From Geosiphon pyriformis uo1 (taxonomy: Eukaryota > Fungi > Glomeromycota): a DNA stretch of 23,515 bases. A program made the translations under genes and the position numbers. The notes under the pieces are model-generated. The model did not search any database and had not been told where the DNA came from. It saw only the letters and a program-made list of their open reading frames with translations. Position 1 is the first letter of the stretch; each line of letters begins with the position of its first letter. Positions 1 through 22,549 of this stretch are shown here, in pieces. The stretch covers positions 1-23,515 of the forward strand of contig JAAOMT010000035.1 in NCBI GenBank assembly GCA_016748015.1, written 5' to 3'.

Positions 1-1087
1 TAGATCTGAGTCAAGATCAGAATCGGAAGTATCACCCTCGGCATAATACATTCCAGGATCATGACGATCCATCCTATGCCTCATTGCAATCCTGCTGAGG
101 AAAGTGAGATGTTGTGAAGTTGGATTTTGACCACCATGAACTCTAGAAGCATGTTTACCTCCGATTTTTCTTAATCTTTTAGCTGTAATGCCATATGGCT
201 TTAAAAATTTACTAAATATACCTGTACTACGTTTTCCATTAATACTATAGACAGGATCACGCAACTTTCCAATCGCTATTGCATTTTGAATCCAGGTAAG
301 CAATTCTCTTGCACGTTCTGGATTCTTTTCCATGGATAGAAACGGTCGAGGCTCAGAATTGTTTTTTGCTTCTCCTTTATTTTTAATATACCCAGTACAA
401 TACCAAGAGTAATCGGGATTATACCATTCCGGAGGATTTGATTCGTCAGGCTCATAATAGATAATGCGAAGAGTAGTTGCTTCAGCGGGTCTCATGCTCA
501 ACATCATGATCACATCTGCAAGATTTTGTAGAGTGGGGGTCTCAGTGGTACGGATATTCTGAAGTCTTCTAAGCCCCTCTTCTAAGGAGAAGTGTTTAGG
601 CGTTTTAGGTCGACTGATTAGAAGCTCGAGTAATATCTGGTAATTTGGCATATGTATTAATTTGCTCGGGATCAACTCCAGCTTCTGCTAATTCTTTACG
701 AAATTGCGAAAGACAGGAACTGGCCGCCACAATCGCCTCATCTGTATTATTTTTTGGCACAGCTAAGTCTAAAGCATGTAACCAAATATCCGACACATCT
801 CCAGTTTTTGCACAATATCGAGCTCTTTCCTTGACAGTAAGCTTTTTCCCCCTTTTGTCTGGTACAAGAGCTTCTATTTGATTTTCTTTGAATAGGCGCC
901 GACGGAGAGCCTCTTTCACATCTTTACGAGCCTTCCAATCTGGTAGCAAAGTACCAAGCTCATTGGCATGAGCACGTAATTGAAGTGGGTTTGATTCAGT
1001 TGATAGGTTATATTTATTTAGGATCTGATCCAAAATGGAGGTAAAGCTATTAGTTTTGGGGTTTCGGGTTTTTCGGGCAGTTATCAT
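1..1087 (-). pseudogene. Protelomerase (telomere resolvase)-like tyrosine phosphoryl-transfer enzyme; one frameshift near 610-625; C-terminus runs off the window edge
   Basis: ORF 605..1087 gives the N-terminal part. A second - frame is open from about 620 to base 1: LISRPKTPKHFSLEEGLRRLQ...DVIMMLSMRPAEATTLRI...WYCTGYIKNKGE...YGITAKRLRKIGGKHASRVH...LSRIAMRHRMDRHDPGMYYAEGDTSDSDLDSDL. Candidate catalytic residues: R (490-492), K (382-384), KxxR (178-180/169-171), H (76-78), Y (43-48). Spacings are 36, 71, 31 and 10-11 aa. Confidence 0.72.
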
Positions 1088-1109: not shown

Positions 1110-1220
1110 ATAAGTAGATTGTGATTATACATTAACCTACTTATTCTTTCAAATCGAAAATTAATTATTTGCGAGTCGGTATATCTATACCCAAAAATTG
1201 AATGGGTCGTGGTTAATGTA
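1110..1220. promoter_or_regulatory. Inverted-repeat-rich spacer upstream of the resolvase-like gene (candidate promoter, origin or target site)
   Basis: ATAAGTAG (1110-1117) / CTACTTAT (1137-1144); TACATTAACC (1128-1137) / GGTTAATGTA (1211-1220); near-palindrome GGTATA-TC-TATACC (1178-1191). Function is inferred only. Confidence 0.3.
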
Positions 1221-1233
1221 ATTCTATCGGAAA

Positions 1234-1452
1234 ATGGATATGAGTAAGACACGAGATCGATCAGGCACGAAATGTCATTTTTCTCAAAATAAGGTTATAG
1301 AATCCATAGCTCTATGTAATAAGATTGCTGAAAATATCAATGAGATCAAAGAGGATATAGCTTTACTCAAAGAGGTCATCCAAAAAATTATTGATATATG
1401 CCAAGTATATGATTATACTTCATGTCTAGAATCGGGTAAGTCAGGTATATGA
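1234..1452 (+). CDS. Small hypothetical protein with a probable coiled coil
   Basis: Intact 72-aa ATG ORF with a heptad-like stretch (IAENINEIKEDIALLKEVIQKI). It overlaps the convergent Zn-finger ORF by 40 nt. Confidence 0.4.
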   Translation: MDMSKTRDRSGTKCHFSQNKVIESIALCNKIAENINEIKEDIALLKEVIQKIIDICQVYDYTSCLESGKSGI

Positions 1453-1697
1453 TTCTCAAGCATAACAATTTTTGCACGTAATTCATCCCGCTTTTTTCTG
1501 CGATAATTCTCTCTACTTTGATATTTGCCTACATGTTTATAGCATGCATTATGTATAGAACTATTTAGCTCACCACAATCTCTACAAGGAGTACGTACTG
1601 GAGATTTCCAATGAACATAGCATCCTTCTGATCTATAACTACCTCGACCACAGATTTTTCCAGTTCTATGGATATATGGGCAATGATAAAATACCAT
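1413..1697 (-). CDS. Small Cys/His-rich zinc-finger protein with a basic tail
   Basis: Intact 94-aa ORF with C-x9-C-x9-C-x2-H, then C-x2-C-x10-C-x2-H, then RRKKR. Confidence 0.65.
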   Translation of the reverse strand: MVFYHCPYIHRTGKICGRGSYRSEGCYVHWKSPVRTPCRDCGELNSSIHNACYKHVGKYQSRENYRRKKRDELRAKIVMLENHIPDLPDSRHEV

Positions 1698-1882
1698 CGT
1701 GATTGTATATTATAATCTTGTGAATCAAATTTATATTTTTTCTTGGCAAAGTGCGTTCCGAAAAAGAATGGAGAATAATTAATTTTTATTTTAAAGATTT
1801 ATCTACTAGTTATTATAGTTACAAAATATTATTATATATACTTTTTGTCAGATCAAACAACGCGCATATACAAATCAATAAA

Positions 1883-4800
1883 ATGAATCTGTCTAGTGAG
1901 GCAAAAAAACATCTACGTGAATCGTTACAACAACAGTGCCTAAATCAAAAATTGGCTGAATATAATAAAGCAAAAAAGCTTCTCACGAGTTTAACTGATC
2001 TTGATAGAGGACATACATATTATAAATATTGGCTTGCATCAGATGGTCGTGCCAGCTCTGCTGATAGAAACGATACGGCACTTTTAGAGGCATATTGATC
2101 AGAAGAGATTTATTCTCAATATATAATTCGGACGGCAGGAAAAGGTTATACAGTGATTGATCATCCTACCAAAGTTTATGGAATGCCTAACACTCATAAA
2201 TGTATTGATGGAAATCGGCCTCTTCATTTAATAATTGATATTGATGCAAGACAAAAGCCTGATCCCTCTGATTCTAAACTTTCTTCTCTAGATAGTGAAA
2301 AAATTACTCATGAGGATTTAATGTCTCGAATTTTAGTCGCTTATGCAGATGCATTAAGCCTTATACCAGACTGTATGCCTTTCTTAAATTCTTTTGCATT
2401 AGCAAGTTCATCGAATGCCAATAAATGTAGTTGGCATATTATTTATCTTCAGGCCCAATTCGTGGATTATAGAGAACTTAAGAGTTTTACAGAAAAAGTT
2501 ATTAAATTAGTTGGGGAACCTTATTCAAAGTTCATTGATATTGGTCTTCCCAAAAAACATTTCAATCTTCGGTTACTTGGATTGACAAAAGAAGGTAAAG
2601 TTAAAAGACCCACAATCTCTTCAGTCTAAAATGGATTTCAAAAGCTGGAGGATTATTTAGTTCAACCTAAAGAGAATTATTCTGAAATCTGGCCACAAAT
2701 CTTTTCTCCAGAGGAGCCAGTAAAACAAGAATTCCAACCTATTGATGATGAAAATATCTTGGTTGAGGGAGCCAATTTAGTTATTGCAAAATATGGGTGG
2801 CTCCAAATTGGAAGAACTGAGAAGGGGTTCATCAACTTTGAAGCACAATCTGTTAAAGAATGCCCTATATGTGACATTAAATATGATAAGAATCAACTCT
2901 ATGAATTTATTCGAAAAAATGGGTATTTTATATTTAAGTATTATTACCAAAAACAATACAAGCCAGATTACAAGGGCCTTAGTTTCAATAAGGTATCCAA
3001 CAAAGTTGAGTCAAAAGAAAAGTCTAAGCTCACTTGTTGAATTATCTGAAAAAATTATCAATGTAAAGGAAATGAAAGATGCACCAAAAGCTTACCCTAA
3101 TTTCTTAAGTGAGAATCTCACTACAACTCTTATTCGCTTATCTGTTGCTAGTGGCAAAACAAAAAAACTAAGAGAAATTCTCAATTTTTTAGCCAAAAAT
3201 AGAGCAAATTTGCCTTGTTTTAACTGAATTTCATATTGTAAAACTCTTAACAATAAGACTAAAGCTAAAGTTAAAATATTGCAAAATTCAAAACTTCATG
3301 TATGCCATTATTAGGAAAATAAGGATAATTTAGCTATACGTTATTATTGTCCAAGTTGAAAGTACTCATTATCTTAATTTCTATGAAAGGCATTCTTATG
3401 TAGTTATTTTAGATGAAAATAATGCTATTATGCGTCAAATGTCTAGTGGAGTTCATGCACATAAATCTGAAAATGCTATGCAGGATTTATTAAAATTAGC
3501 TGTTCATGTTATTTCTATGGATACAATTGCAAACAAATTGACTTTAAACTTTTTAAGACAATATTGAGATGGAGATATAAGAATTTTTGATAACAAATAT
3601 AAGCCATGTAAAGATGAGACTGTTAAAATTCTTTATGATTTAGATAAAAGATCAGAAACTATACATAGGGGTCTTAAAATGCTTCAGAAAGGTAAACGAG
3701 TTGCTTTTTTAATGACTTCATGCAAAAAAGCACAAGCTTTAACAAACCAAGCTTCCAAATTACAAAAACCAGATGGCTCATACATTTTATCATGAATTTA
3801 TTTTGGCCAAATGAATGGAAAGCAACAGCAGGATGACTTTGCCGATATTAATACTATTTGGAATAGTCTTGATTGTGTGGTTTATACAAATACTGTAGAA
3901 GCTGGCATCTTTTTTGAAATTTCCAATCATTTTGATGCAGTTATAGAAATAAGTAATATTAATACAGAAGTACATGCTGAAGCTTTTGCACAAATGTTTT
4001 ATCAAGTTTGCAATTACCCATATCATATTATTTCTCTCTATAATAGTAAAAAAACTGACATTTTCAAAGAACCAAATCGTGATCTCATTTGTGCTGAACT
4101 TTTTGCCCTGAGACTTGGGGACTTGTCAACTGTTATAAAAAGACATTGTGAATAAAATAAAATTAATGACTGTTATATATTTGATTCATCTCCAGCCATA
4201 GATTTATATTAAGGTCAAATATAAAAGACACTTATTGGCCAAATATTTCTCTGAGATTTTTTGTAGTCTTATTGCTAGTACTGGAGCAATTCTTGAATTA
4301 ATTTTGACAGAAGATACTAAAAAAGTTAACAAAAATAAAATTTCTCATACTATTAAGAATATTGAGAAAAATATAAAAGCTTGGATACAGAATCAATAGC
4401 AAATGCTTCAGATATTAGTCTCAATAAAGTTGAAATTTTTAAGCAAAATTTTATATACTTTTTTGCTGATAACATGACTTTACAATGTCATTATTTATGG
4501 AGAACATATGCTTTAGGTAATATTGGTGGCAAGAATGATATTTAAAACTGGGGTATGAATAATAATGATTGGATTAAGCTTTGTAATATAGATTTTGTAA
4601 AAAAATTCAATAATCCTGAATCTTTACAACATTTTAGAAAGCTGGCATATTTTAAAAGACAAGGTTTCAATGCGACAAAAGCTATAGAAAATTTAAAAAT
4701 CAAAGAAAAAATGCAATGGGAAAATTCACATAAATCTATGGATCCATCTTCAGTCAATTTGCATAAATTTTATTCAGCAAAACAATAGGAAGCGGTACAT

Positions 4801-5309
4801 AATCTTGTCCAATCAATAGGTTTTAGAGATATAAATGATATGAATATTCTTTTTGATGATGATATGGCTAAGACTTTTGAGCAATCATGAGAAGATACAT
4901 TGTTATTTTTTGGTTTTAAGACCAGAGCTAAAGGATTGCCTGATTTTAATGCTACAATAAAATTTATTAATGCAGTAATGAGTAGTTGGTGTGGTTATAC
5001 TATTAAGAGTAGTGCAACTCATGTAAGTTCTAAAGAACTTCAAGTATAGAAAAAAACATATTGAATTGATCGCAACCCATATTGTGGAGCTGGCTTTAAT
5101 AATCAAGAAGTAATAGCTAAGAAGTTAAATATTGTCCTATAGCTCCAGTTCTTTCATCATATAAGTCAAAGGTAATTGATGAAATTCAGGATCTTTTTGA
5201 TTTAATACTCATTACTACTAATATCACCATTTCAAAATTCAGTAATGAGGTTTGTGAAAAGAGTTCTTGCAATAACATAGTTAGAAAATTTATAACAGAT
5301 TTGCCATAA
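1883..5309 (+). pseudogene. AEP (PrimPol-like) primase - Zn ribbon - UL9/origin-binding-protein-like SF2 helicase fusion, with multiple stops and frameshifts
   Basis: ORFs 1751, 2153 and 2759 share a frame; the likely start is ATG 1883. AEP motifs: LIIDID, KCSWHII, FIDIGLP..FNLRLLG. Zn ribbon: CPICDIK. Helicase motifs: IRLSVASGKT (GKT 3153-3161), VILDE (DE 3412-3417), ISMDTIAN, VVYTNTVEAGIFFE, AFAQMFYQV. These parallel UL9 RAPMGSGKT / LDE / AMDATAN / YTTVVTVGLSF / QSLGRVR. The last frame ends ...FITDLP* at 5309. Confidence 0.8.
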
Positions 5310-5491: not shown

Positions 5492-8071
5492 ATGTCTCAA
5501 TCTACTTCTTAATCTACTATCTTTTCTAATAACATGGACATTGACATCCTCCTAATGAACATTAGGGAATCCATTACTGTTCAAAAGCTTGCTGACCAGC
5601 TTGCACTCAAGATTGGTTCTTTCAGTCTTGATAATATGTTGTTCTCTCAAATTCCAAAGCAAAAAAATTATGTTTTTTTTCTATTTCATAAGATAGATGA
5701 TTTGAAATGTAAAATTGTTGCTAATTCAAACCATGACCCAAAATTTTTTCTACCTACTCCTCTTTATGATCTTTCTCAATTTCTTTCTGATGACTTACTT
5801 ATAATTAATAATACACTTGGTGAAGTTTGTGTGACTTTAAAGCATTTTCGTGAAAATTTGCTATTGGCAAAAATTGCTGAATATAATGCTCTTATCAATA
5901 AGTCTCCCTCAAAAGTTCATTTGGATGTCGCCAGTTTAATCAATAAAGTTCATACTAATGACTTGGTTTCCAATGAAGCTAAGAGTGGTTTACTGGGAAT
6001 TCTTGATAAAAAAATTAAGGAGTTTAAAACATTCATTAAAACTTATCAAGCTTTAAAGAACTTGGTCATTGGTTCTGCTGTAGTTAGTTTTACTCCACAC
6101 AAGCCTGTTTTGAAAAAATATTTTTCTAATAAAGTTGTTTCTGTAAGTTCTGGTATCAAAACCTTCCCCAAAATGTAAAGTTCACCCATTTCTGGCCAAG
6201 AAGAATCTCCCAAACAAAAAAGTGAAAAATGCAAAACAAGGCAATCAAAAGGGAAAAAAAAGGCCTCAAAAACAACAGTTAAACAACCACTCAAAGCCAA
6301 AAAATCAACGAAGATATTGGTTCACAATATTTCTTCTGTAATTATTTCCTCTTTTGTTATAGATTTCTTGAAGTTAGATTCAAACTTTCAACTTACTTCG
6401 AAACTCTCTTTTGTTAAGACCTATTAAACGTGGTCAGGCATTAGAAAACAAATCCTCAAAGCCTATGGTAAAATCCCTGAAAAGAAAAGAGAAAGCCTCT
6501 TAATTTTCAATCAGCATTTACTCTTTGCATCCGACTATATTTTAAATAATTTCAATATACTTAAAGATCATAGAAATAGTATTTTTAATATTTCTAAATA
6601 TGTTAATGATGTTTTATTATTTTTAATAAATCATGACTTGATTGTTGTTCTATTAGATAAAAACATGGGTCTCACTATTTGTGATTATTCTCATTATAAC
6701 ACTAAAATGCTTAAGCTACTTTTTGACACTTCAGTTTTTAAGCTTTGTGATGTGCCTGACGTTTTGCACTGTTCTAAATTGCTCTTGGATCATATATCTG
6801 ATTTTTATATGAGCACTGACTTAAGGAAACATAAAAATACTCATGAATACTTGCAAAAAATATTTTTTCCTTTACATAATTCTGAATTACATTTCTCTGA
6901 AATTTATAGATTATGGAAATTACACAAAAACTCTTGTGTTTTTCATCCTATTACTCTTAATCATTCTTAGATTATGTCTGCTGCTTCGCATTAGTTAGCC
7001 AAATGTTGGCAACTCTACATTAAAAAATGTCCAATAGTCTTTGATAATTCTATGAGTTTTGTTAAACTTATTTCGAATTATTATTATGGCTATGTTACTG
7101 TTACTATATTTGATATCAAAAATATGTATACCAATATTGAAATTCATACGTTTTATCAGTGCATTTAGGCTTGGCTGAAATTTTTTTCATCTGATCACTC
7201 AAATTTTGAGAATCTTTGGTTGACCTTTGAAGTTAAACTTATGAGGCTTATTTTTGAGAATAGCTTTGTTCTTTATGAAGATTTGTTTTATTACTAGCAC
7301 AAAAGACTGATGATAGATACTTTAGCTGCTCCTATTATCATGAATTTATTCTGTGCTTCTATTGAACACAAAATTGTCATAACTATGGGTAATACTTTTG
7401 GGTCTATTATTGTTCGTCATTATTTGGATGATATTATTGTTATTTATAACCCTCATAAATTTGATATTAATGCCTGGGTATGGTATTACCAGTCTCTTGC
7501 TGTTTCTTCTATGTTTATTTTGGAATGCACTGATAATAATGATTATAATGCCGTATTTTTAGATTTGAATATTTCGGTTTTCTAGTCTAATAATCTTACC
7601 AAATTTTCGGTCCAATTTTATGACAAACCATGTAATCCTCATATATATACTGATCTTTAGACTTTTTATCCCAGGAAATATGTTATGAACTGGATTCAGG
7701 GCAAAAATATTCATCATATTTGAAATAATTTGGATTTTTCCAGTTACTGGATTCATATTAAAGAATTTAAAGCTTGGCTGCTGGCTAGAGACTATCCCCT
7801 GTCTGTGGTTGACTTTCAACTTAACAAAAATACTTGGGCTGAGAGGTCTCAGCTTCTTGGTTTTCATAAAAAAAGAGATTTTTCTAGTATCATTGTTAAG
7901 ATTCCTAATCTACCAGAAAAGCCTCTTATATGTAAAGTCATTTCCCCTTTATTTTCAAGTTATGTCAACTCTTTGGTAGCTATAGTTATCCGTGGTAGTA
8001 GTGTTTTTAATGTTGTTAATAGAGCCAGAAGGATTTTAATCGTACAAAAACTGGCTGAACCTACTTTTTAG
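5492..8071 (+). pseudogene. Penelope-like reverse transcriptase (~860 codons, in-frame stops, no GIY-YIG domain)
   Basis: ORFs 5534, 6638, 7310 and 7730 are all in one frame with ATG 5492. PLE-type motifs: VHNISS..FLKLDSNF, LLDKNMGLTI, IYRLWKLHK..FHPI, FDIKNMYTNI, AAPIIMNLF, YLDD (7421-7432), FLDLNI, YDKP..HIY, LLARDYP. The frame ends at 8071 with no Cys/His linker or GIY-YIG. Confidence 0.82.
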
Positions 8072-8224
8072 TGTTCACTGGTGTTGAATTCTGATTGGTT
8101 TGCATGATTTGGCTTGACTTGGTGACAGCTAGCTAAATTATTTTATCCTTGGTCCAGCCATGTAATTTTTATCCCATTGGCCATTGTCACAGGCTCTAGC
8201 ACATGATTAGTTTTGTTCTATGAC

Positions 8225-8279: not shown

Positions 8280-10049
8280 ACTTATTTATAATTTTAAATT
8301 AGTTAAACAAAAAGTTAATCATACCCAAATTGTTAATTTGATTATAAATAAAATTTTTAATATTAATGTAAAACTTATTTAATTAAGTAAAAAATTAACT
8401 TAAAAAATTAAAGAATTTTTTGTTAAAAATTTAAAAACATATTAGTTTTTACAATACTAAAAAAATAACAGCAGTCCATAGTATTAATAATATTATTATT
8501 ATTAAAAATAAAAACAATTATAAAAACAAAATCTTCATAACTATTACTATTGTCAAAAATTAGAATATATTGTTAAAAATTAGAACATATTATTAGAAAT
8601 TGCTGAAAAAAATATTTAATTAATATTAAGAAAATTAATATTAAGTACAATCAAAATATATATAATTAATAAGATATTAATATTTATTTTCTTAGTATTA
8701 ACAACTCTAATATTTATTTTAATTATTACAAAATTATTATTAATATTCTTAAATAATAGTGTAGTCTTTGTCTTAGTATTAAACTTTTCAATTTATTAAT
8801 TTAAGATCTTAAGTTATCAATTATAATTAAAAATAAAAAAACAACAAAAAAAATCAATTTTAATTTATATTTATATTATTATGAGTATAAATTACAGTAA
8901 TTTACCACTTTAAATACTATTAAATAGATATTTTAACCAAGCTATTTATCTTGGTTTTTACAAAACTCGGAATTTTAATACTATTTAAAAAAAAAAGCTA
9001 TAGTTAAATCTACCAATTTTTTTTCTCTTAACAACAACCAAATTACTTCTAATATGATTTCTTTAACTATAATTACTAAAGATAAAATACTTGCTACTAT
9101 TTTTTTATTTAATAAAAAAAATTTAAATATCTTTAATTTTTTTAGTAAAACTGTTTTAATTAGAATAAACTAATAATAATAATATATACTAATATCAAAA
9201 CAGAATAAATAAATATTAAACTAATACTTATTAGTAAATTAACTGACAAAATAATTATAAAACAACTTATAAATTAATTAAATCACTAAGTTAATTAGTA
9301 TTATCAGTTGAAATTTAAGATATTAATTAATATAAAATTATTTTTATAATATTTATTATTAATTAATATAAATTATCAATTAAATTATTATAATTATTAT
9401 TTAACAGTTTACCAAAATAATTTATAATTTACAGAAATAACTTGTAATTTAATGAAATATATTTTTAATTTACCAAAATATTAAGAAAAAAAAGTGTTAG
9501 ATTATAAAATAGTACTATAATAAATTGTATAAAAGAAGAACTTTTTTTTAAAAAAATATATCTTAGTTAAAATTAATTTTTATTAAATATCTTTTCTATA
9601 AATTAATTTCAATAAAAACTTATCCTAAAAACATAAATATTCTTAAATATTTTTTTCTTAAAATTTAATAAACAAAGCCCAATTACTGTTTAGAAATTAA
9701 AAACAAATTAAAAATTCTAGTGTTAAATATAGTTTATATGTTTTTTACATGTAATTAATTACTTAAATTAGTTTAGACTATACTATATTAATACAACAAA
9801 AGAAAATTTATCTAAAGACAACATTTTTTGAATAATATTAAACAAAATAACACTACAAAAAATAAATTCAACTAGTTATTTGGCTGTTTTTAAGAGATTA
9901 GTTTTAATTCTAACAGATTTATATTTCTAAAGAGAAATCAAGTTAGAAAATATATTATTATTTATGTTAATTAAATGTTCTGAATTATTAAACATATCAA
10001 TATCTTATATGCAGCATTTTTTTTTAAAAAAAACTATTTTTTTTTCTCA

Positions 10050-12340
10050 ACTTACTAATAATCTTGCTAAAAAAAACTCAAATAAATCATAAGTTTATTA
10101 ATCTTAAGACTAAAAACACTGTTTAATATAAAATTATCTTTAATAAAATATTTAAACATAATAACTAATACATTAACAGGCTTAATAATAGACCTAATTA
10201 GAATTAACAACTTAACCAAATTGAATTTCAAAGATATCAGCTAAAAAGAAATCAAAAAATTACTAACAATTACAAAAAAAAATAAAAACCACTAAAAAAA
10301 AACTCAGAAGAATCTGAAAGAACAGAAGCTTTAATATAAAAAATATTACTTATAAAATATGGTTTAAATACTTTGAGAGTCTTAGAAAAGAAAGACAAAA
10401 GAACTTTACAGTCCATAGTTAGATGATCTATTTTTTGATATTGTTATTTGAATAGAAAAACCAATCCAAAGTTATAGAAAAAATGTGACCAAAAACATGA
10501 TAACATAAAATAACACAGGATAATGTGAAAGTACACAGAATATGTGTAATAATTCAGAATAACATAATACAAAACTCGATAATATATTATAGCACAAAAT
10601 AACTAATTGAAACATAAGATAACTAGTAATAATGTAGAAGAACAAAGTTATAACAGAAATAGTAAAATAATAGTTAGCAAAAACAAAACAATTAAAAAGC
10701 AATTCTGTAGAACAAAAAAATGTATAAAATAAATAATTATAGAAGTTAGAAAGAAAAAAAAATTAGATTCTTAGGAGTTAATTAAACTCTCAGAGTTAAT
10801 TAGACTTGTAAGTCATAATTATTAAATATTTTTCTCTTCAAGAATAGTTGCTATCAACCAAAATGAAATTATATCAATAAAATATTTCTTCAATTTTTCA
10901 AATCTATGTTATTATCTACTACTTAACTTGTTGACACAATTGTTTTTAATTATGGCTATTGACAGAATATTTATTTCTTATTTCTTATTTTATTTTTTTT
11001 TATTTTTTTATTTTTTTTTATTTTTTTTTATTCTTTTTTGTAAAGTGACAACATAAAAAAATTGACTGTTTGAAAATAAACTTTGTAATAGCCTGGTAAA
11101 AGAAGAAAGCTCTTCTTAAGATTAGATATTAACATTATCTTGATAGCTTATCAGAAGAGTAAAAAAATACCATCAAACCCTAATGACTGCTTGTTAGCTC
11201 AGAGAAAATAATTTACATTCACATACAAGAAATTACAACACCACAAAATATTTCTTTGTGTCTTATAACCAAAAAACTTTATAAGTAAATTCATATTAAT
11301 TAAAAAAACCTTTAGAAACTAATAATACTAATACACTAAACAAGTCTACTAAAAAAAAACCATCAAAAACTCTCCAAAAACCCAAATTTTAAGCACCAAA
11401 TGTTACCACTATATACTACCAAGTTTATTTATAACAACATCTAAAAAAATGCCAACAACCAGAAGTTTCTCTTCAAATATGTTATTTTTTCAGTATATTA
11501 GTTTTGACAACTATAAAGTTTAAGTCAATTTAAGATTTAAATATAATTAGAGCAAATTGGAAATAATAACCAAAATTTGGAAAACAAAAAATAAAACACA
11601 TTTAATTATTAACTTAAAAGATTATATTATTAATCTCAAAAACAGTGCAGCCAAAAAAAAATTGACCAACTTGGTTTTAAACTTATTTTGAAACAAAATT
11701 ATCTTTTTTTAATTCATAAAAAAAAAAATTCAAATATTATCTTTGTTCACTAAAACTAACCAGTAATTGAGAACAAATACAGCAGTATATAATTCTTTAA
11801 AGTAAACAATTATATATTGTCAAAATCAACAAACTTTAACATAATATAGAAAACAACACCAAAAACACTAAGAGTTATCTTAATATTAATAGTAAACATA
11901 CTTAATAATACATTATACAATACAACAGCAAAAAAAAAACCAAATTCAAAAACCACCAAAAACTTGGCAATTTTAAGAGTGGCCAAACAAACAGAACTTG
12001 TAAACTTAATTAAAAACCTAGTATTTAAAAAACTTTAGAAAGCAATTTCTATATAAAAAAACTTTATATTGTCTTTAAAAACAGATTTTACATTCAAAAA
12101 ACCATGTATAAATTAAAAAACAGCCTTAATATAAGCCAATTTAATCTTAAAAATAGTATTAAATATTAGAGTAAAAACTATTCACTTAGTAAATCTTTGA
12201 TAACTAGTAATAGTTTCTCAAGCACCACTAATAATAACACCAAAAACCAGAAAAAATAATAATAATTCAGTTTCTATTTGATCAGCCCAGTTTTCAAGAA
12301 CAAGTAACTTAATAGAAAACTGTTGTTTTTTTTTCAAAAC
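10050..12340 (-). pseudogene. Eroded ORF1/gag-like protein with a CCHC zinc knuckle (probably a non-LTR retrotransposon), split by a solo LTR
   Basis: Residual peptides LLVLENWADQIETE (~12300) and SSVCLATLKIAKFLVVFEF (~11970). Removing 10442-11436 and one TSD copy restores GCWHFFRC-QKIDHLTMDCK (C-x4-H-x4-C). Boundaries are approximate and the family call is from recalled similarity. Confidence 0.5.
10442..11436 (+). mobile_element. Solo LTR (995 bp) with a 4-bp target-site duplication
   Basis: Ends are TGTTAT...ATAACA; flanks are ATAT (10438-10441) and ACAT (11437-11440). It shares blocks (CTGGTAAAAGA, GATAGCTTA, a T-rich tract, AGCACCAA) with the LTRs at 14487 and 16234. Confidence 0.75.
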
Positions 12341-13599
12341 TGGTAAAAATTTACTAAAAGCTCTATATTTAACAACATAATTAATGATTGATTTTGGCTT
12401 ATTTTGAATGATAGACTAATTAATACAACAAAGATCTTATTTAAGATCTTATTAAAAATCACAAAGAAGTTTGTGTAACAATAGCAGAAATAAGTAATTG
12501 TCTCCACTTTTTTGAATCTTTAGTCTTTTTGACTATTTTATTAAAAAAAATAGTACTAATAACACTAAATATAAAACTATAAAAAAAAGACTAACTTATT
12601 AACTGGTTTATTATTAAAAATTTTGGGCTCTTAAAGAAAATAAAAACAACACTAGGATTAATTTAAGTGTGTCTTTTTAAAAAAACTTTAACTAGTAAAA
12701 AACCAGTCAAAAATGAAAAAGATGTTTTAATAGTTACTAAAAGCAGCTTTTCATTAATTTTTTTTAAAAAAATGTAACCAAAACATTATGTTTAGCTGTT
12801 TTAATAACAAAGAGACTTTTTTATGTTGAAATTTTATTAGTTATTATAGAAAAAGTAATATTTACAGCTTTTTTACTTTTTGCTTTGATTATAATCATAA
12901 AATTAAGAAAACAAAAAGTTTTTGATTTTTTCTTAAATATTCTTGTTTTAAAATTAATTATTTTATATAAATATTTTGAATTGATTAATTACTAATTATA
13001 ATAATTATTAATAACTTCTAAATTTGAATCTAAAATGACTTTTTTGATATATTTTTTTATTTTTATTTTTTTTAATTTATTTTTTTTTATATTATTAAGT
13101 AGTTTATAGTTATGATTTTTTATAAAAGAGTTAACTTTTACAACAAAGTAATTATACATATTTTAAAAAATTTACAGATAAGATTTTTTTGTTAAAAAAT
13201 TAATTTTTACTGTAAAGTAATTATACAAATAATTAATATAAAATTGGTTATTTTTTTATAAGTCTAACAGCATAAATAGTTTAAAATATAAAAAAATACT
13301 TTGAAAAAAAAATTAATTTATTGAAAATTTATTAAGTTTTATTAATAACAAAATTACCAGCAAAATAATATTAACAATATTTAGAAAAAAGTAGAAAAAT
13401 TTTCAGTAATATTTGATGTTTTCTAAAAAATAATACAACAACAATTAAATTAAAGTAGTAATTATATCAGATATAATAACTTTAAAGTATTATTAATTAA
13501 TTTATATTTACTATAAACAATAATTTAAAAACCAAAATAAAATTACAGCTTTTAAAAATTTTTTTTTTAATATATTGAAAATTAAATTAATAATTATTT

Positions 13600-14486
13600 T
13601 TTTAGAAACTATAATATTATAAAAATTTAAAAAAAATTTCTTAAAAACTTAATTTATTATTTAAACAAAGATTCAAAAGTTATTAGCATTGATATTTACA
13701 CTATTTATTTTAAAGAACTTAATTATAATATTATTAAGTTTTATAAAAAAAAATATTTTGTTGATTTAAAATTTGTTCTTAAACTTAAATTTGAATCTAA
13801 AATTAACAAAAACAAAAAAAACACTTAACTAGTTTACACAATTTTTAATACATTAAAAACAAATCTTTTAATATTTATAAAAAAACCAATTTTAAATTAC
13901 TATTTTTAATTACATTTTTTTCGATTTTGTTTGCTTAAGTACAAATATTTAATTCATTTTTTAACTAATTTTTAAGACCAGAAAACTTTATCAAAAATTT
14001 AATCTAATAGTTAGAACTAATTTTAAACTAATATTAATCTTCCTAATTATTTAGCAGAAAACCAAAGTAAATATTTAAAAATATTAGCTTACAAAAAAGA
14101 CATTTCTGAATCTATTGAAAAAAAAAACAAAAAAAACAAAAACTATAGACAATAATAAAAATAAAAAAATGACTATTTATATTGCAAAAATTTTTAAATT
14201 CTCTAAAAAAACANNNNNNNNNNNNNNNNNNNNACTTTAATTATTTTTTAAAACTACTTTTAAAACATCAAATAAAAACTATTAGAATCTATTATAACTT
14301 ATATTAAAAAGTTTAATAAATTTCTTAAAAAAATTTATTAGCTTAAAACAAATACTTATTACTCTAATTTTTAAAATTTGGATTAAACTATTATTAATTT
14401 AAGGAATAAATTAATCAAAAAAGTTTATCTACATACTTTAACAGATTTAAATACTACTATTTAACATATTAAAAACTATAAAAGAG
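13600..14486 (+). pseudogene. Heavily eroded retrotransposon gag relic, interrupted by the LTR at 14487
   Basis: Residual reading MTIYIAKIFKF [gap] ...NIK*KLLESIITYIKKFNKFL...NLRNKLIKKV...TDLNTTI*HIKNY resembles the capsid C-terminal/MHR pattern (Q..ESV..Y..RF...F..GL). The start is approximate. Confidence 0.45.
14214..14233. other. Assembly gap (20 N)
   Basis: Run of 20 n characters. Confidence 1.
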
Positions 14487-15354
14487 TGTTACTCATAAAA
14501 ATATAAGAAGTATATTAGTACATAAATTAGCCAATTAGAGGTAGCCATAGTAAATATAGAATTCCAAGATTCTTTTTAAAAGAAATTGCAGAATTCCAGA
14601 AATTTTAGGATTCTTGTACAAGGAATTGCAGAATTCCAAAATTCCAAAATTTTTCTCAAAAAAAATTGCAAGATTCCAGAAATTTCAAGATTCCTGGTGT
14701 GAAAAATTGAGAAATTGAGGAATCTCAATTATGTATATATAGTGGTAGTATTAGAAGTAGAAAAGGCAGACCTCTCAGTTTAGATTTCATCTAAGCAACT
14801 TTCAAATTCACAAATATTAATAAATAATTATTCTCTATCTCAAATCCACTTTCCACTATTAACACTTCATGTTGATAGTAATTGATACTTAACCACACTG
14901 AAACAATAGCTCTTGATCATGGTTATTGACAAAATACTAACTTGTAATTGCTTTTATTTGTTTCATTATTTTTTTTTATATTTTTTTATTTTCTTTTGTT
15001 ATTTTTTTGGTTTTACTAAATTGATTAAGAATTAAGCGCTAAGATACAGATGTTATAAGGACTGGTAAAAGACCCATGAAACAAGAGTAAAACACTCATA
15101 AATTTGAGAATAGCTTATTAGGAGAATTACTGGCCATCACGCTGAAAAAAAAATTTGACAAAACTGCAGTTTTAGGAAGCTACAAATAAAACCATCAATT
15201 AAATCTCTGTCTATTATACAAAAAACTCCACAACAAAACCTTCAGATAATAACAATGTACCAACATTACCAACACCATCCACCAGATTAGTCATTGAGCA
15301 CCAAGTTACAAGTTTGTTATTTGATTTGGAGACCCCAAATAATTACCTATAACA
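14487..15354 (+). mobile_element. 5' LTR (868 bp) of a + strand LTR retrotransposon
   Basis: Ends are TGTTAC...ATAACA. It is homologous along its length to the reverse complement of 16234-17071 (e.g. TAGCCAATTAGA, GAGGAATCTCAATTATGTATATATAG, AATCTCTGTCTATTATACAAA) and is followed by a PBS. Confidence 0.85.
14560..14700 (+). repeat. Imperfect ~40-bp tandem repeats (GAATTGCAGAATTCCAG-type) in the LTR U3 region; counterpart at about 16890-17000
   Basis: About three diverged units are visible in the + LTR, with related units in the - LTR. Confidence 0.6.
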
Positions 15355-15373: not shown

Positions 15374-16233
15374 TATAATCCTACAGAGAACAGCACCAAT
15401 AACAATCATCCAAAAGTGGCAGAATTAGAAATCATAAGAGCAAACCACTTAGAATTTGCCAAATCTCTGTTTTAACAATACAGGCAACAATTAGAATTAA
15501 ACAATAACCATTTCTCAGCAAAATTAGCCTTCAACTTTTATGTCAATAATAAAATCACAGACTGCTTAGGAGCAACAGTTAACATTGAATCTGCAAGGAA
15601 AAATTTCTATACAGAATTATTTCAACATACCAGTTTACCAAAAAACTACAGTTTTGCACTAATCATCAGAGAAATCAATCAAATCATTAAAAGGTACACA
15701 CAACAACAATTCCCCATCACTTATGCAAACAAAGGCAAAGGAAGATTGCAAATACCAGTAGTAATACCAAAACAAATACAACTACCTACTTAAAAGAAAA
15801 CCAGAGTTGAATCACCAACCAATCTATCATACTATTACACACTAGGAAGCACTATCAATATCTTATTAATAGACATGTTCACATTACATGCGACATCAAT
15901 ATTTGGCCAACTTCCATTTTAAAGTAAATAAAAGAAAGCAGAATTACTAGGAACTTATGGCAACTACTTTGAGGGATTTAAATCATGATCCCCAATGCCA
16001 TCAGAACTCCAATCACCACCACTTTAACCAGATTTTGGAAATGCAAGTCCCTGGGAGATAACAGAATCAGAAAAAAAAGAAAAAAAAGAAGAAACCAAAG
16101 ATTAAAAATTTACTTACCAAAACCCAATCTTAAAAAATTTGGAAGTTGAAACTTCAAACATTAAAACCTAGCAAACTCAAAACAATCTAAATACCAAAGC
16201 AATTAATCAGAAAAACTTACCTTCAGTAATTGT
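15374..16233 (+). pseudogene. N-terminal gag-region fragment of the + strand element, interrupted by the - strand element
   Basis: The frame after the PBS reads NPTENSTNNNHPKVAE...NFYVNNKITDCLG...KGKGRLQ...QKNLPSVIV with scattered stops and ends at the TGTTAC at 16234. Confidence 0.6.
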
Positions 16234-17071
16234 TGTTACAGGTGATTATTTCTGCTGTTGAATTAAATAACAAACCCATAATTTGGTGCTCAAAAGCTAC
16301 TTCTGTGGATAAGGTTCTGCAAGTGTTGTATCTGAAGGTTTTGATAGAGTCCTTTGTATAATAGACAGAGATTCAATAGTGTTGATAGTAGATATATCTT
16401 TCCAAAAATTTTCTCAATTTCTTTCTCAATGTGGTGGCCAGATTTAGTCTGGCAGTCATGCCCTTTTAGTAAGCTATCCAATAATATATAAAATCCTACT
16501 CTTATTTCTGGGTCTTTTACCAGGCTATTCTTGACGTCAATAACTCAATACTTAATTTTTTAATCAATTAGTATACAACAACAAAATCAAAAAAAGAAAG
16601 AAAATAAAATAAAAAAAATAAAAATAAAGAAAATAGAGAAAATAAGCCAAGGCAATTTGGTACGTTAGTATCTCGTCAATAGCTGTGATCAAGAACTATT
16701 GTTCCAGTGTAGTTAAGTATTAATTACTATCAACATAAAGTGTTAATAGTAGAGAGTGGGTTGAGATATGGAATAATTATTTATTTGATAATTGGGAACT
16801 GAAATGTTTCTTTGATTCAATCTAAACTGGGAGGTCTGTCTTTTTAGTTTCTAATCCTGCTGCTATATATACATAATTGAGATTCCTCAATTTCTTGATT
16901 CTTCACAACAGGAATCCTGGAATTCCTGGAATCCTGCAATTCCTTTGAGAGAAATCCTAAAATTCTGAAATTCTGCGATTTCTTGTCAGGCTGGAATTCC
17001 ACATTTACTATGCCTACTTCTAATTGGCTACTACTCATGCTAATCTATTTCCTATATTTCTATAAGTAACA
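16234..17071 (-). repeat. 3' LTR (838 bp)
   Basis: Terminal inverted hexamers TGTTAC (16234) and GTAACA (17066-17071), an adjacent PPT, and homology to the LTR at 14487. Confidence 0.88.
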
Positions 17072-17086
17072 TTATTCCCTTTTTTT
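17072..17086 (-). promoter_or_regulatory. Polypurine tract
   Basis: The - strand reads AAAAAAAGGGAATAA immediately before the LTR's TGTTAC. Confidence 0.8.
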
Positions 17087-17750
17087 AATATTGAGCTCCG
17101 TTGAAATCTAATTCATTTAATTCCTCCTCTTGAAGTATTTCCTGGATTTCGTTTTTGAGAATTACTTGTGTTATTTGGGTTTGTAATTCTTCAAATTGAG
17201 TATTGGTGATCTTTCTCAATTGATTACTGGTAACCATATTCATTGCTTTGTTGAGTAATATTTTTGGTCTATCCTGAAATGCTGTGTGTATTTGGTAGAT
17301 GGCTCGGGTCTGTGTGGATAAGTTGTTCTTTCCCACAAAATGTTCTAATTGTTGTAGTATTTTTTTGTCAAATAATTGCTTTGTTTTATCCGTATATAGA
17401 TTTTGGATATTTATGTGTTGTCCCAAGTAAAAATAACAATAGTTTCTTGGAAATTGTTGTATCTACCAATTCCAAGTTTTTTTAGTCAACTCTTGATATA
17501 GTGCCTCTTTTGTTAACTCTCTTATTGCTAATTTTACTTTTGTAATAATTTTGTCCACCATATTTTCAGTTTTCTTCTGTGTTCTGGGTTGCAATGTTTT
17601 TCTAGTATCTCAATATCAAGTGGTTTATTAATTGATTGTAATCTCCATTTCCTGGTGTTGAATTAATTAAAAAATTTGTTGGGCTAGTGAATGGATATTG
17701 TCCGTAATCTCCATTTTTCTGCTCTCTTCTGTCACATCAACCATGTTCTT
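17085..17750 (-). pseudogene. Additional ORF of unknown function between integrase and the 3' LTR
   Basis: ORF 17085..17426 extends upstream through stops (NMVDKIITKVKLAIRELTKEALYQEL...). Its stop codon overlaps the PPT. The start is approximate. Confidence 0.5.
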
Positions 17751-17767
17751 ATATATTCTTTTGTTGA

Positions 17768-19150
17768 TCAATTGGACGTGTTGTTGTCAATAATAATGAT
17801 TGGTTCCAGATCTCATGGAATCACATCTGGTTGGACTAGTATTCTCTGTACTCTTAATTGTGGAATATTACTGGTGGATGATGATGCTATATGGTGGTAT
17901 GGTTTCAGTTAATCTCCATGTGCTACTTTGGTCAAGATTTTGTTATTCAATCTTAATTTGTAAGCTCCATTTCTTAGAATTTCTTTTATGTAAAATGGTT
18001 TATTCCATTTGGGGTCAAATTTTCCACTCCATTGTTTTTCCGCTTTGGTATGATGTAAGAATACTTTGTCTCCAATTTTGAATTCAACTGGTTTGTCTAG
18101 TAGTTGGTTATCATGTCTTTTTTTTTGTTTCTCTTGTGACTTTTGTATGTTATCAGCTGCTCTTTATTGTTTGTTTTCTAATGTTTTTATTAAGTCATAT
18201 GTTCTTCTCAACAATGTATTTTTGAAATTTTCTTCTGTTATTGGTTTGGTTGGATATGTGCTGACTTTTATTTCCACTGGTAGTATTGCTGTTTTACTAT
18301 ATACTAATTCAAATGGTGGTACTTGTATAGTATCTTGCTTCATTGTCCGATAAGCAAATAGTATTGATGGTATCAACAAATTCCAATTGTTCTGGTTTTC
18401 TTGGCTGAGTTTAGCTATTGCTTCACACAATGTTTTGTTGAATTTTTTGACTAATTCATTGGTTTGTAAATGGTATGGTGATGATAGTGGTCTCTTAATT
18501 CCAAATTTTTGGCTCAATTCTGTTAATGTTTTGTTCACAAAATGAGTTTCTTGGTCTGATAATAATTCTTTTGGACATCTATGTCGACAGATCAAATCCT
18601 AATGAACAAATTCAGCAACGGATTCTGCATTCGCTCTTTGAATTGCTTTCACCTCTGGCCATTTAGTGAGATAGTCCATGGCTACTGCTATGTACCTGTT
18701 TCCTCCACTGGTGATTGTTAATGGTCTGACTAGATCAATTCCAATACAGTCAAATGGTTGTCCTACTTTGATTGGTTTTAATGGTTTACTGGGTTTCGTA
18801 CCTCCTCTTTGCTGACAAGCATCACAATTTTAAACATATTGGATGATGTCTGGATACATTGATGGCCAATAGTATTTTTTTCTGGTTTTTTCTTTGGTTG
18901 CTTCTTTGTGAAAATGTCCTGCTGTTTGATTTGAGTGCATGTTGAATAATATTGTCTCTTTTTCTGGTTCTGTAACTACTCTGGTTGGTTGATCTGGATC
19001 TTTTCTATTTTTCCGATAAAGTATATTTTGGTGAGTGATAAAATATTTTGATTGTTGTTTAATACTCTTTCATTCCATTTGAGATAAATTTTCCTTGAAC
19101 TGTTGAGTGGTTATATAATGTTGAAGTTGTTGATATTTTTGTATGTTCAT
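17768..19150 (-). pseudogene. Integrase (HHCC zinc finger, DDE core, GPY/F region)
   Basis: MHSNQTAGHF..YYWPSMYPDI..CDACQ; IGIDLVRPL; AMDYLTKWPE; LLSDQETHF; SPYHLQTNELVKKFN; KFDPKW/PFYI. Contains stops and a frameshift near 18000. Confidence 0.9.
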
Positions 19151-19212
19151 CTTTTGTTATATTTTTCATTGTTATTGTTCTGGTTTTGTTATATTTTTGT
19201 GTTAAAATGTTC

Positions 19213-20500
19213 TTAGATTTGTCTCATTCATGACAAACCGTCAGCATTTCTATTGTCTTTTCCTTTTTTGTAATGTATAGTATAATTGTATGGTGCAAGT
19301 GCTATTTTCTATCTTGACTGTTTTCCATCTCCAAATTCTTGTTTTTGGAGTGATGTTAATCCCTTGTGGTCTGTGTATACTTCAAACTTCTGGCTCAAGT
19401 ATTCTCTCCATTTCATGACTGCCCAGTATATTGCTAAGTATTCTTGTTCTAGTGTTCTATAGTTCTTTTCGGCTGGCATTAAACCTCTGCTGGTATATGC
19501 TACTAAATGTTCTCTGTCATCTGGTCCTCTCTGAGATAATACTGCTCCCAATGCTTAGCCAGATACATCAGTGATGATGATGAATGGTTTGCTGTGATCT
19601 GGATAAATCAGTACTGGAGCTTGAATGAGCTTTCTTTTCAAAATGTCAAAAGCTTTTTGTTGACTTTCTGCCCATTCATATTTGGCATTCTTGGTTTGCA
19701 GTTGGTTGAGTGGCTGTGCTATTTTGGAAAAATTCTTGATAAAACATTGATAGTAGCTGGCGAATCCCAAGAATGATTTCAGTTCTGTCATATTGGTCAG
19801 CATTGGAAAGTTTTTTACTATCTTTATTTTCTCTGGATCTGTTTTGATGCCGTTTTTGCTGACTATGTGTCCTAAGAATTTTAGCTCTGTTTTGCCAAAG
19901 AAGCACTTTGTTGCATTTAACTTTAGCTCTGCTCTTCTTAGTCTTTCGAACACTTGTTGAAAATAATGAAAATGATCATTAAATGTTTTTGAGAATACGT
20001 TGGTGTTGTCTAAATATACAACTACTGATTTCCACAATAAGCCAGTATAGATAATTTCTATTAACTATTAGAAAGTGGCTGGTGCATTGGTTAAACCAAA
20101 TGGCATTACTTCAAATTCAAAATTCCTTTCTTTCATGGTGAATGCCATCTTTTTTTTGTTGGCTGGATCTATGGCTACTTGCTAGTAACTACTATCTAAG
20201 TCTAATGTTGAGAACCATTTGTTTTTGCCAAAAGCATCAAATAATTCCTATATCCATGAAGTTAGATAGCTGTCTCCATGAGTTACACCATTGAGTTTTC
20301 TGTAGTCTACACAAAATCAGATCTTTCTATTCTTCTTATGGACAAGTACCACTGGTAATGACTATGGGCTCATTGATGGCTGAATTAGCCCATTGTCAAG
20401 CATTCAGTTTATCTTTTAACGAATAATCTCGTGGCTGACTGGTGGCACTCTGTATGCTCTTTGTTTAATTGGCATTGCATCTTCAGTCTTGATCTGGTGC
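19213..20500 (-). pseudogene. Reverse transcriptase and RNase H
   Basis: FCVDYRKLN, TLDLDSSY*Q, VMPFGLTNAPATF, YLDN (20005-20016, from YLDD), KFLGHIVS, ITDVSG, NY..LEQEYLAI, YTDHK, NADGLS. Confidence 0.95.
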
Positions 20501-21044
20501 TGAATGATGTCAGTTTGGCCAAACTCATTTTTGCTGGCAAAGATTTTATTGAACTGGTTGAGCAACATCTTGAATTGCATACATTGGAGTGGATCTAAGT
20601 TTCCCATGTTTATTTGTTCCAATTGTTTTGGTTGGAGCAAATAACATTCACTTTGTCTGTATATTGTTTGTGATGTGATATCAACATATCCACAAAGTTG
20701 TGAAAAGTCTGGAATGAGGTTTGGTGGTTGATCCTCTATTTCAGTGTTTAAGTATTCAATAATGGTTCCGGCTGGTATTTCTATGACATTTTCTGTATTG
20801 TTGTAGATGGGAATTTTGATGTGGCTGTAATCTTTGGCTGGTATGTAGAGATTGATAAGTTCAACTTCTCCTGATTTACAAAGACTGGCTTCTGCTTCAA
20901 AAATTTGTGCTTGGTCTTTTTCCTTCCTTTCTATTGCTAGCATGTACTGGTTATATAGTAGAATAGAAATAGCTTGACTGGTTGAGATAATTTTTTCTTG
21001 GCCAACAATTTTTTCCTCTGCTATATTAACTAGTATATCTATTC

Positions 21045-21441
21045 TACTCGTTGATCCGAATCCCTGTATTCCTCTTGCTGTTATTCTTAATTTTTCTCTC
21101 TTTCCCACTGATACTAACTGAGCTATTTTAACCAGAGGCAGGAATATTGCCTGTGCTATCTTTTCATTGAGCTCTATTACATAGGCCTTTTCTGAGTCAT
21201 TTTGTAGCATAGTGATGATATTTCCTATATATCTCACATTAATTATTTCTCTTCTTATATTAATTCCTCTTTTCGCTAAACTACTTCTAAATGCTAATTG
21301 AACTATTGTTGTTGCCAGAATTTCTAGTGCTACTTTCAGATCAATACAGGTGCATGAATGTGGTTCCAATTTGATGGCTTCTTTTTCTGAATATCTCAGA
21401 TCAAACCCTGTATCAGTATCATGTACACGTTCTGGCATAAT
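21045..21441 (-). CDS. dUTPase domain within the polyprotein (ORF 20416..22113), motif III degenerate
   Basis: Motif I TGFDLR, II RSSLA, III REIINVRYIG (from GGIIDxGYxG), IV EKIAQ, V RGIQGFGSTS. Confidence 0.9.
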
Positions 21442-22549
21442 ACCTTCTCCATTGTTACTATACCATTTCAACTCTTGTTCTTTAGAGAAATCTGGTAGTG
21501 CAATGTATTGTTCATAGTTTAAATTGGAGTTTGAATCTGAGTTTGAATCATCTTTGTTGTTATTGCCATTTTGAACAGAGCTGGAATTGGTGTTTTCATC
21601 ATCATTATTACAGTCTAGATCACAATTGATCAGTGATTCTGATTCCGATGCACAGCTGCTGATTGGTTTTTCTTCTTCAGAGATCATGTAGATCATGCAT
21701 GGTGGTGGATTGTAAATGAGATTACAATTGTCACAATATTCAAAGTCACTGGGAATTAAACAATAGCAACACAGTCTTGTATTTAACTGTACTAGCAATT
21801 GTTTTTGCTCTTTTCTAGTGGGTGCCAAGTTTTGGTAATGTTCATGGAATTCTTCTGGTTCCAGAAAATTTATAACTGGCTCTGCATCCCAGTCAAGCTT
21901 GACAGGTTCTGGTGGGTTGTTTTTAATTGTCCTGATTTCTTTTGGCGATTGCCATTCGCCATAATTCATTGTCGTCATGTGGACAACTGTCCAATCACTG
22001 TACAGCTCTTCTCCAGATGGCTTCAATGGGTGTTTTTTTCTTGATCCAGTCACTGATGAGGATTGTGTATTGGCAAAACACATCGCATGTTCCTTCTCTC
22101 CCCGGAATGTCATTCTATATTTCTTTGTCGAGGAAAGTTTCTCTACAGACTATACATGGTGTATTATCCCATTTTTCTACTTGTTTTGGTCTTCCAAAAT
22201 GTTCGACATGGCATGCATGGTAATAGAACTTGGTTAACTGTAGGTGTATGGGATATAAGTGTTGTTGGCTTGAATGTTTTCTTTCTTCCTCTTTTTCCCT
22301 TTGTCCTTTTCTTTTTTCCACTTCCAACTTGATGGTTCTTTCTGTTCGTTGTCAGTCCAGGTCAAATCGTCTGTTTCCCAAGTCAGTTCTTTTTTTTGTT
22401 TTCCTTTAGGGTTGTCGTTCCACGAGAGTATTGGTGGTAGTTTGTTGTGATCAGCGTTGGTCCAGAAGACTTGGTAAGCTTCCCAGATAGGTTTTTCTTT
22501 CTTCTCTTCCAGTTCGATCAATAGTTTCTCTCTTGGAGGAGTCTTGAAA

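Follow-up and report, generated by a model that had tools for sequence, protein, structure and literature searches.

To our knowledge, the protelomerases described so far come from bacteria, from phages of bacteria and from a few giant viruses of algae. In phage N15, the replicon consists of RepA, the protelomerase TelN and the telRL site, and its linear-plasmid mechanism has been summarised (PMC9170930). In this study, we describe a gene at the edge of a contig of the fungus Geosiphon pyriformis uo1 (Glomeromycota; assembly GCA_016748015.1, contig JAAOMT010000035.1, positions 1 to 23,515 of the forward strand; the whole stretch of 23,515 nucleotides analysed is hereafter called the window) that belongs to a fungal protein family with a predicted protelomerase fold. 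The family resembles TelA, TelK, TelN and ResT in its predicted clamp shape, with two domains and a long linker helix, in the order and similar spacing of R-K-R-H-Y and in a G-x-x-K motif, and these protelomerases are its best structural, embedding and profile match. However, identity in structural alignments is 8–14%, PF16684 is not matched, the protelomerase motifs GRR..E and GH are replaced, and an extra near-invariant Arg precedes the His. Moreover, the fungal proteins lack the long C-terminal extension of TelK, and their genes are chromosomal and multi-copy, with no telRL found at the loci examined.

The fungal locus is similar to the N15 replicon in that a protelomerase-fold gene lies near a primase-helicase of the Herpes_ori_bp/CyRepA1 type. 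However, N15 RepA has a Toprim primase whereas the fungal N-terminus is AEP-like by eye, the fungal helicases score below the CyRepA1 cut-off, and no partition or virion genes were seen at the fungal loci. The telomere-resolvase-like protein of Emiliania huxleyi virus 86 (EhV-86, Nucleocytoviricota; Q4A292), with 378 residues and a eukaryotic setting, is the first or third viral Foldseek match of the fungal models, but this putative resolvase is 9–11% identical (E 6e-3 to 1.5e-2) and has no direct sequence link to them. Crypton, DIRS, Starship captains, Polinton-like viruses and phaeovirus EVEs share the superfamily and the integrated multi-copy state, and Polinton-like viruses also have a replication gene alongside the recombinase. 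In contrast to these elements, the fungal family is structurally nearer to protelomerases than to Xer/Int/Cre, and it has no Pfam match at E up to 1 to any of their families; Crypton, DIRS and Starship recombinases have few solved or modelled representatives in the structure libraries.

A frameshifted gene copy at the contig edge

A minus-strand frame runs for 229 codons without a stop to base 1, the edge of the window, and none of 1000 shuffles of bases 1–1100 gave a frame as long (shuffle maximum 194). The initial annotation had reported this frame, missing from the list of open reading frames, together with R-K-R-H-Y motifs spaced by 36/71/31/10-11 residues, and both observations are borne out (36/71/31/11 when Y211 is taken); the reference numbering that it gave also matches the reference sequences (TelK R275/K300/K380/R383/H416/Y425; Borrelia miyamotoi ResT R198/K224/R296/H324/Y335). 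When numbered from TTG 675, R62 lies at 490-492, K98 at 382-384, R169 at 169-171, H200 at 76-78 and Y210/Y211 at 46-48/43-45. The features of the gene and its neighbourhood are as follows.

1..620, minus strand: C-terminal catalytic part of the predicted protelomerase-fold gene (tblastn, P0121 residues 164-363 to 630-34, 94% identity)
621..1087, minus strand: N-terminal all-helical part of the same gene (tblastn, P0121 residues 1-158 to 1087-614, 90% identity)
490..492, minus strand: Arg (R62), aligned with TelK R275 in the profile alignment (140 of 147 non-gap rows)
382..384, minus strand: Lys (K98) in G-x-x-K, aligned with TelK K300 in GQAKKR (134 of 136 non-gap rows)
169..171, minus strand: Arg (R169) in LRK, aligned with TelK R383 in the profile alignment (142 of 146 rows)
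76..81, minus strand: Arg-His (R199-H200), whose His/Gln site probably corresponds to TelK H416 (R in 130 of 132 rows; H in 81 and Q in 42 of 129)
43..45, minus strand: predicted nucleophilic Tyr (Y211, equal to Y360 of P0121; 126 of 127 rows)
1147..1168, minus strand: AT-rich motif, 81 nt upstream of the ATG of the recombinase-fold gene, inside a non-coding block conserved across clades
1234..1452, plus strand: small ORF of 72 aa, no family, in a conserved region (blastn 1142-1443 to L058, L060 and L063, and 1142-1523 to L045)
1413..1697, minus strand: small Cys/His-rich ORF of 94 aa, likely zinc-binding, 81% identical to the L001 copy
1775..1795, plus strand: AT-rich motif for the second time, with the helicase ATG (1883) 108 nt downstream
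1883..5106, plus strand: decayed primase-like/UL9-like helicase gene (tblastn with the helicase ORFs of L045, L058 and L042)

The active site had been described as intact, which holds for the five residues, all present, but not for the gene. Relative to the intact relatives L001 and L002, 35 bp are missing near 617-621, so that the frame is shifted, the linker helix is lost and the N-terminal half lies in another frame, as ORF 605-1087. The window copy is a frameshifted pseudogene, likely dead, with its catalytic residues kept. An assembly error is disfavoured, as a true deletion would better account for a 35-bp loss with a 3-bp microhomology. In the best-holding sample, which is possibly the window's own, contigs span the deletion junction ungapped but with just 12–18 letters on one side, and lend the frameshift weak support. 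Past base 1 only an acidic tail of the gene is left; a contig of run X1, identical over window 1-281, extends 198 nt past that base. As for the nucleophile, which had been placed at Y210 or Y211, Y211 is the conserved residue and Y210 is not (42 of 128 non-gap rows). Y211 would fall on TelK Y425, judging from the ranges of the structural alignment, which end at 359 and, in TelK, at 424.

Protein family and conservation

Protein searches gave 159 and 320 relatives, and 356 for the second clade (E up to 1). The named sources among the matches listed (120 per search) are all Glomeromycota, in the genera Gigaspora, Dentiscutata, Cetraspora, Diversispora, Entrophospora, Rhizophagus, Geosiphon, Paraglomus, Ambispora and Acaulospora, and intact full-length members of 380–437 aa are numerous. 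A whole-library profile search found 525 representatives at E up to 0.001; among the 150 listed are seven divergent, mostly unnamed proteins, 28–37% identical to fungal members, which keep the catalytic residues wherever these are covered. The seven (P0400, P0409, P0413, P0366, P0398, P0343 and P0402) come from contigs of 1–22 kb, and most have a shorter N-terminus. Five Gigaspora margarita records (P0126, P0127, P0149, P0188 and P0196) are labelled ‘d5-like helicase-primase’, which looks like a transferred misannotation.

In the window clade (171 proteins aligned to the window, counted over non-gap rows), R62, K98, R169 and Y211 are 95–99% conserved, so that four of the five residues of the proposed active site are near-invariant, and the fifth is mostly His or Gln behind the conserved R199. 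In clade 2 (120 proteins, non-gap rows), the corresponding counts are R 99/116, K 101/102, R 82/94, H 96/101 and Y 94/99. The presence of conserved R, K, R, H and Y on a predicted integrase-type catalytic fold places the family in the tyrosine recombinase/Topo IB superfamily. The initial argument that a KxxR motif favours TelK and type IB topoisomerases over integrases is weak because that lysine (K166) varies, being found in 100 of 145 rows of the window clade and 47 of 94 of the second.

Among the best 80 of 104 confirmed metagenome loci, a single ORF spans profile positions 60-355 in 18, and the gene is split into at least two ORF pieces in 42. Copies are found on contigs of up to 9.5 Mb, and we therefore conclude that they integrate. 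The two modelled clades are 31% identical. In the best-holding run there are many copies of graded divergence, which differ nearly always by transitions (333 of 345 places). Related contigs are also present in RNA run X17, in a share so small that they were rejected as evidence of expression.

Predicted fold and remote homology

The AlphaFold model of P0121 (clade 1) had a pLDDT of 78.6 and a pTM of 0.51, and that of clade 2 a pLDDT of 84.8 and a pTM of 0.65. Among 48,161 chains, the clade-1 model matched TelA (Z 11.0–11.3, rmsd 9–11, about 265 aligned), TelK (Z 10.5) and the ResT catalytic domain (Z 8.4, rmsd 3.9, 136 aligned), then SroF (7.6), XerH (7.2) and lambda Int (6.5). The clade-2 model matched TelA (Z 13.5–13.8, rmsd 5.5–6.3, about 261 residues) and TelK (13.2, rmsd 5.1, 260), followed by ResT (8.8), lambda Int (7.4) and variola Topo IB (6.3). 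The top four structural rows were all protelomerases for both models, which are predictions with whole-chain rmsd of 5–19 Å. Both have a 20-residue linker helix between the domains, and most of the protelomerase lead comes from the N-terminal domain and this helix; when only the catalytic domain is compared, they lead narrowly (ResT 8.4–8.8 vs. about 7.3). The best structural matches were thus protelomerases and not Crypton/DIRS recombinases or Topo IB, the outcomes that the initial annotation had named as contrary to its reading. Against the PDB, the top five Foldseek matches of the P0121 model were TelA (E 6e-4 to 1e-2), with Cre next (1.6e-2). Among viral models, the EhV-86 telomere resolvase was first for clade 1 (E 6e-3), and for clade 2 it came third, behind the Syn5 integrase and nudivirus VLF-1 (second). 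By ESM Atlas features, 19 of 30 matches fell in ResT-TelK_cat clusters (0.96) and one in Phage_integrase (0.94).

In HHalign, a 37-row family profile aligned with 17 protelomerases at E 8.6e-5 (probability 60, 195 columns), in which the linker helix and the residues R, K and R lined up, and with sets of 13 and 26 integrases at E 0.24–0.25; the comparison sets came from 24 of the 30 loci retrieved, with lambda Int and Cre added. In the first controls, clade 1 gave E 0.0085 against protelomerases and 0.024–0.051 against integrases, values that show a superfamily-level signal only, since protelomerases and integrases themselves align at E 5.5e-4. Clade 2 alone gave E 0.21, and the family profile gave 0.54 against TelN alone.

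At the sequence level, PF16684 (ResT-TelK_cat) matched none of 58 members and none of 12 further members at E up to 1, and the lambda-Int/XerC family PF00589 likewise gave no Pfam match, and no His is conserved at the position three residues ahead of the second Arg. Searches of Pfam, NCBIfam, PHROGs and PDB sequences returned nothing meaningful, an IcmE match in the PDB being a repeat artefact, and the family HMM does not retrieve protelomerases. Pattern and BLAST searches, which are no proof of absence, found no relative in GTDB genomes or GenBank phages, nor in IMG/VR, where one stretch was confirmed without a locus. The GRR..E and GH signatures, invariant in 10 of 10 aligned protelomerases, are absent from the fungal family, which reads S/C-M/I-R-P and L/M-R-H at the G-R-R and G-H sites. 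In a quick unrooted tree with long branches (13 family members, 12 of the 17 protelomerases and 12 of the 13 integrases), the family, protelomerases and integrases form three separate groups, whose relative closeness the tree does not rank. It seems that the fungal protein is built like a protelomerase, as far as prediction goes, yet falls outside the group by PF16684, GRR..E and GH. The telomere resolvase first proposed is upheld as a predicted fold for the intact product, with all three solved protelomerases ranked first by both models; its function is still conjectural, and against it stand the separate grouping from the sampled protelomerases, the lack of GRR..E/GH and the lack of a target palindrome at the loci examined.

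The cassette and its upstream motif

Judging from sequence, the recombinase-fold gene is part of a conserved cassette with a UL9/RepA-like helicase, which the initial annotation had missed. In the window the helicase gene has several stops and frameshifts. Parts of it occur in 8 of the 80 loci and the Cys/His-rich ORF is matched by tblastn in 14, most loci being too short for either; the 72-aa ORF has no Pfam match. The helicase ORFs of L045 and L058 match Herpes_ori_bp (E 3e-22 and 5e-12) and reach 106 and 146 bits against CyRepA1, under its cut-off of 200. N15 RepA is a CyRepA1 member (244 bits, same cut-off) that also matches Herpes_ori_bp, and a Pseudomonas RepA adjoining a protelomerase is a full member (353 bits). 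UL9-like helicases are also found in Preplasmiviricota and Nucleocytoviricota clusters, and the helicase partner is therefore not diagnostic. The N-terminus of the fungal helicase looks like an AEP primase from motifs read by eye. Besides the protelomerase-fold gene, no integrase was seen in the core cassette. The recombinase and helicase genes are divergent in the window, L045 and L036 and in tandem in L058, L011 and L042, an arrangement that a simple inversion between the two AT-rich motif copies fails to explain.

The AT-rich motif, ATAATTAATTT(N1-3)ATTT(T/G)AAA, is present at exactly two places in the window and in none of 100 shuffles. A looser form has 13 matches in 9 of 81 sequences (0–1 in 20 shuffles), 12 of them 67–110 nt upstream of a recombinase or helicase ATG, counts that are not independent because the pattern was drawn from the same sequences. 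The simplest reading is that the motif is likely a promoter element. Near-palindromes with arms of at least 11 bp show no excess (10 in 173 kb vs. 4, 6 and 11 in shuffles), and the loci examined, mostly short-read contigs of 1–3 kb, have no recurrent telRL-like palindrome and no terminal repeats. Single palindromes in L032 and L075 were considered as telRL-like sites and rejected, as they do not recur.

A contig of run X1 joins window position 1793 to 4686 with 30 letters between, representing a sister copy without most of the helicase gene, possibly a non-autonomous derivative. ORFs of aspartic-protease-like and RING-finger type are found repeatedly downstream of the recombinase (L058 6663-9565, L063 2268-3072, L001 2099-2524), one such ORF being present in 11 of the 80 loci, and may be further element genes. 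F-box/LRR-like genes, recognised by eye, adjoin the recombinase in up to 13 of the 80 (e.g., L020, L044 and L053), and a coiled-coil ORF lies beside it in 11; both are possible cargo. Polinton-like virus hallmarks (major capsid protein, packaging ATPase) were not found in the window. In L075, a P-loop ORF at 9363-10904 (minus strand), packaging-ATPase-like by eye and without profile support, lies about 8.5 kb from a truncated recombinase, and an additional ORF matches HNH/homing endonucleases; this may be a nested Maverick.

Proposed function and alternatives

It is likely that the gene marks an undescribed mobile element, and the replicating form of this element may be linear DNA with hairpin ends. 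In our view, the family is new, has a protelomerase fold as predicted by the models and probably belongs to a mobile replicon of fungi. We tentatively favour, with chances a little short of even, the explanation that the intact product is the hairpin-telomere resolvase of a mobile replicon with a UL9/RepA-like primase-helicase. In this scheme, an extrachromosomal form would begin to replicate once the helicase had bound an origin, and replication around the hairpin ends would yield an inverted-repeat junction. A dimer of the enzyme would then cut both strands through the conserved Tyr, forming 3'-phosphotyrosine links, and rejoin each strand to itself to give a hairpin, which is the reaction of TelN in N15. 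The ResT reaction can be reversed, and chromosomal copies could arise from such a reversed resolution reaction or from host repair and decay later.

A serious rival is that the enzyme acts in a Polinton-like or transposon-like element as its integrase or excisionase. The copies are chromosomal, and no second gene with a recombinase fold was seen in the cassette; we therefore regard this as a real possibility of somewhat lower probability, and one that does not exclude hairpin resolution. A circular form would recombine into chromosomes in the manner of Crypton, Starship and phaeovirus tyrosine recombinases, and the architecture would reflect either descent from the protelomerase branch or convergence. 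The hundreds of distinct copies in fungal assemblies would suit such an enzyme, as would the name ‘integrase’ given by the sources to three clade-2 records (two from JGI, one from NCBI), the rank of the Syn5 integrase for the clade-2 model and the R-P-x-E and L-R-K of the family, which are integrase-like motifs. Polinton-like elements with a helicase-primase and a tyrosine recombinase have also been described (PMC7805220). However, integrases and other tyrosine recombinases reach Z values of at most 7.4–7.6 vs. 10.5–13.8 for TelA/TelK, HxxR is absent, with variable residues ahead of the second Arg, and profile matches to the integrase sets are weak in all HHalign runs (E 0.024–0.49).

An enzyme of VLF-1-like or Topo IB-like type that resolves concatemers or relaxes DNA while an element or virus replicates, and that produces neither hairpins nor integrants, seems improbable to us. 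The gene adjoins a replication helicase, VLF-1 ranks high for clade 2, and an R-K-R-H-Y pentad is common to Topo IB; but Topo IB chains reach only Z 6.3 and 5.4 with the clade-2 model, limited to the catalytic part, and none was listed for clade 1, whereas the all-helical N-terminal domain aligns with TelA/TelK. It is more improbable still that the family is domesticated or largely fossil, a passive cargo of other repeats with no current element function. The broken window copy and helicase and the many split loci would agree with decay, as would the proposal by Manley et al. of a single old acquisition of origin-binding genes followed by vertical descent (PMC10234402). Against it, one ORF is kept at the 18 loci mentioned above, the cassette and its upstream motif persist between clades 31–37% identical, and the best-holding run has copies of graded divergence.

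Beyond hairpin resolution by this one family, it is conceivable, though on balance doubtful, that AM fungi host undescribed linear elements that replicate themselves, with hairpin ends that are covalently closed and an N15-like build (RepA-like primase-helicase and protelomerase), in which one enzyme would both resolve telomeres and fuse them into host chromosomes, and whose range, through divergent relatives that are unnamed, would reach other hosts or free viruses.

With a multi-copy family in the nuclear genomes of fungi, the protelomerases would gain a new branch, and eukaryotes perhaps a new class of mobile replicon. Searches in the main texts of mostly open-access papers found no description of the family, nor any paper pairing ‘protelomerase’ with ‘Rhizophagus’ or with ‘fungi’ and ‘eukaryotic genomes’; an earlier description may exist elsewhere. 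The words ‘recombinase’, ‘integrase’ and ‘telomer’ do not occur in the main text of the paper on giant-virus regions of R. irregularis (PMC10640383). Unclassified repeats make up 24% of the R. irregularis genome (PMC8647823), part of which the family would name, and Glomeromycotina have unexplained origin-binding genes of possible viral origin (PMC10234402), to which the cassette would give context. If the enzyme integrates DNA, it might be developed towards gene delivery in fungi whose transformation is difficult; if it forms hairpins, the family would provide further enzymes for producing closed linear DNA.

Remainder of the contig

The window looks like a repeat-rich fungal contig. Its last part (23090-23515) is an array of TTAGGG units, some in the variant form ATAGGG, and points to a chromosome end some 22 kb away from the recombinase-fold gene; TTAGGG is the telomere repeat reported for R. 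irregularis (PMC10234402). At about 16000-22500 (minus strand), pieces of dUTPase, RT, RNase H and integrase mark a decayed Ty3/gypsy-like retrotransposon. Directly after the helicase, at about 5500-8100 (plus strand), lies a decayed reverse-transcriptase element, Penelope-like by eye only, with a weak RVT_1 match at 7310-7585 (E 0.03). The stretch 8300-14500 is very AT-rich (GC 12–23%) and contains a single ORF of at least 60 aa.
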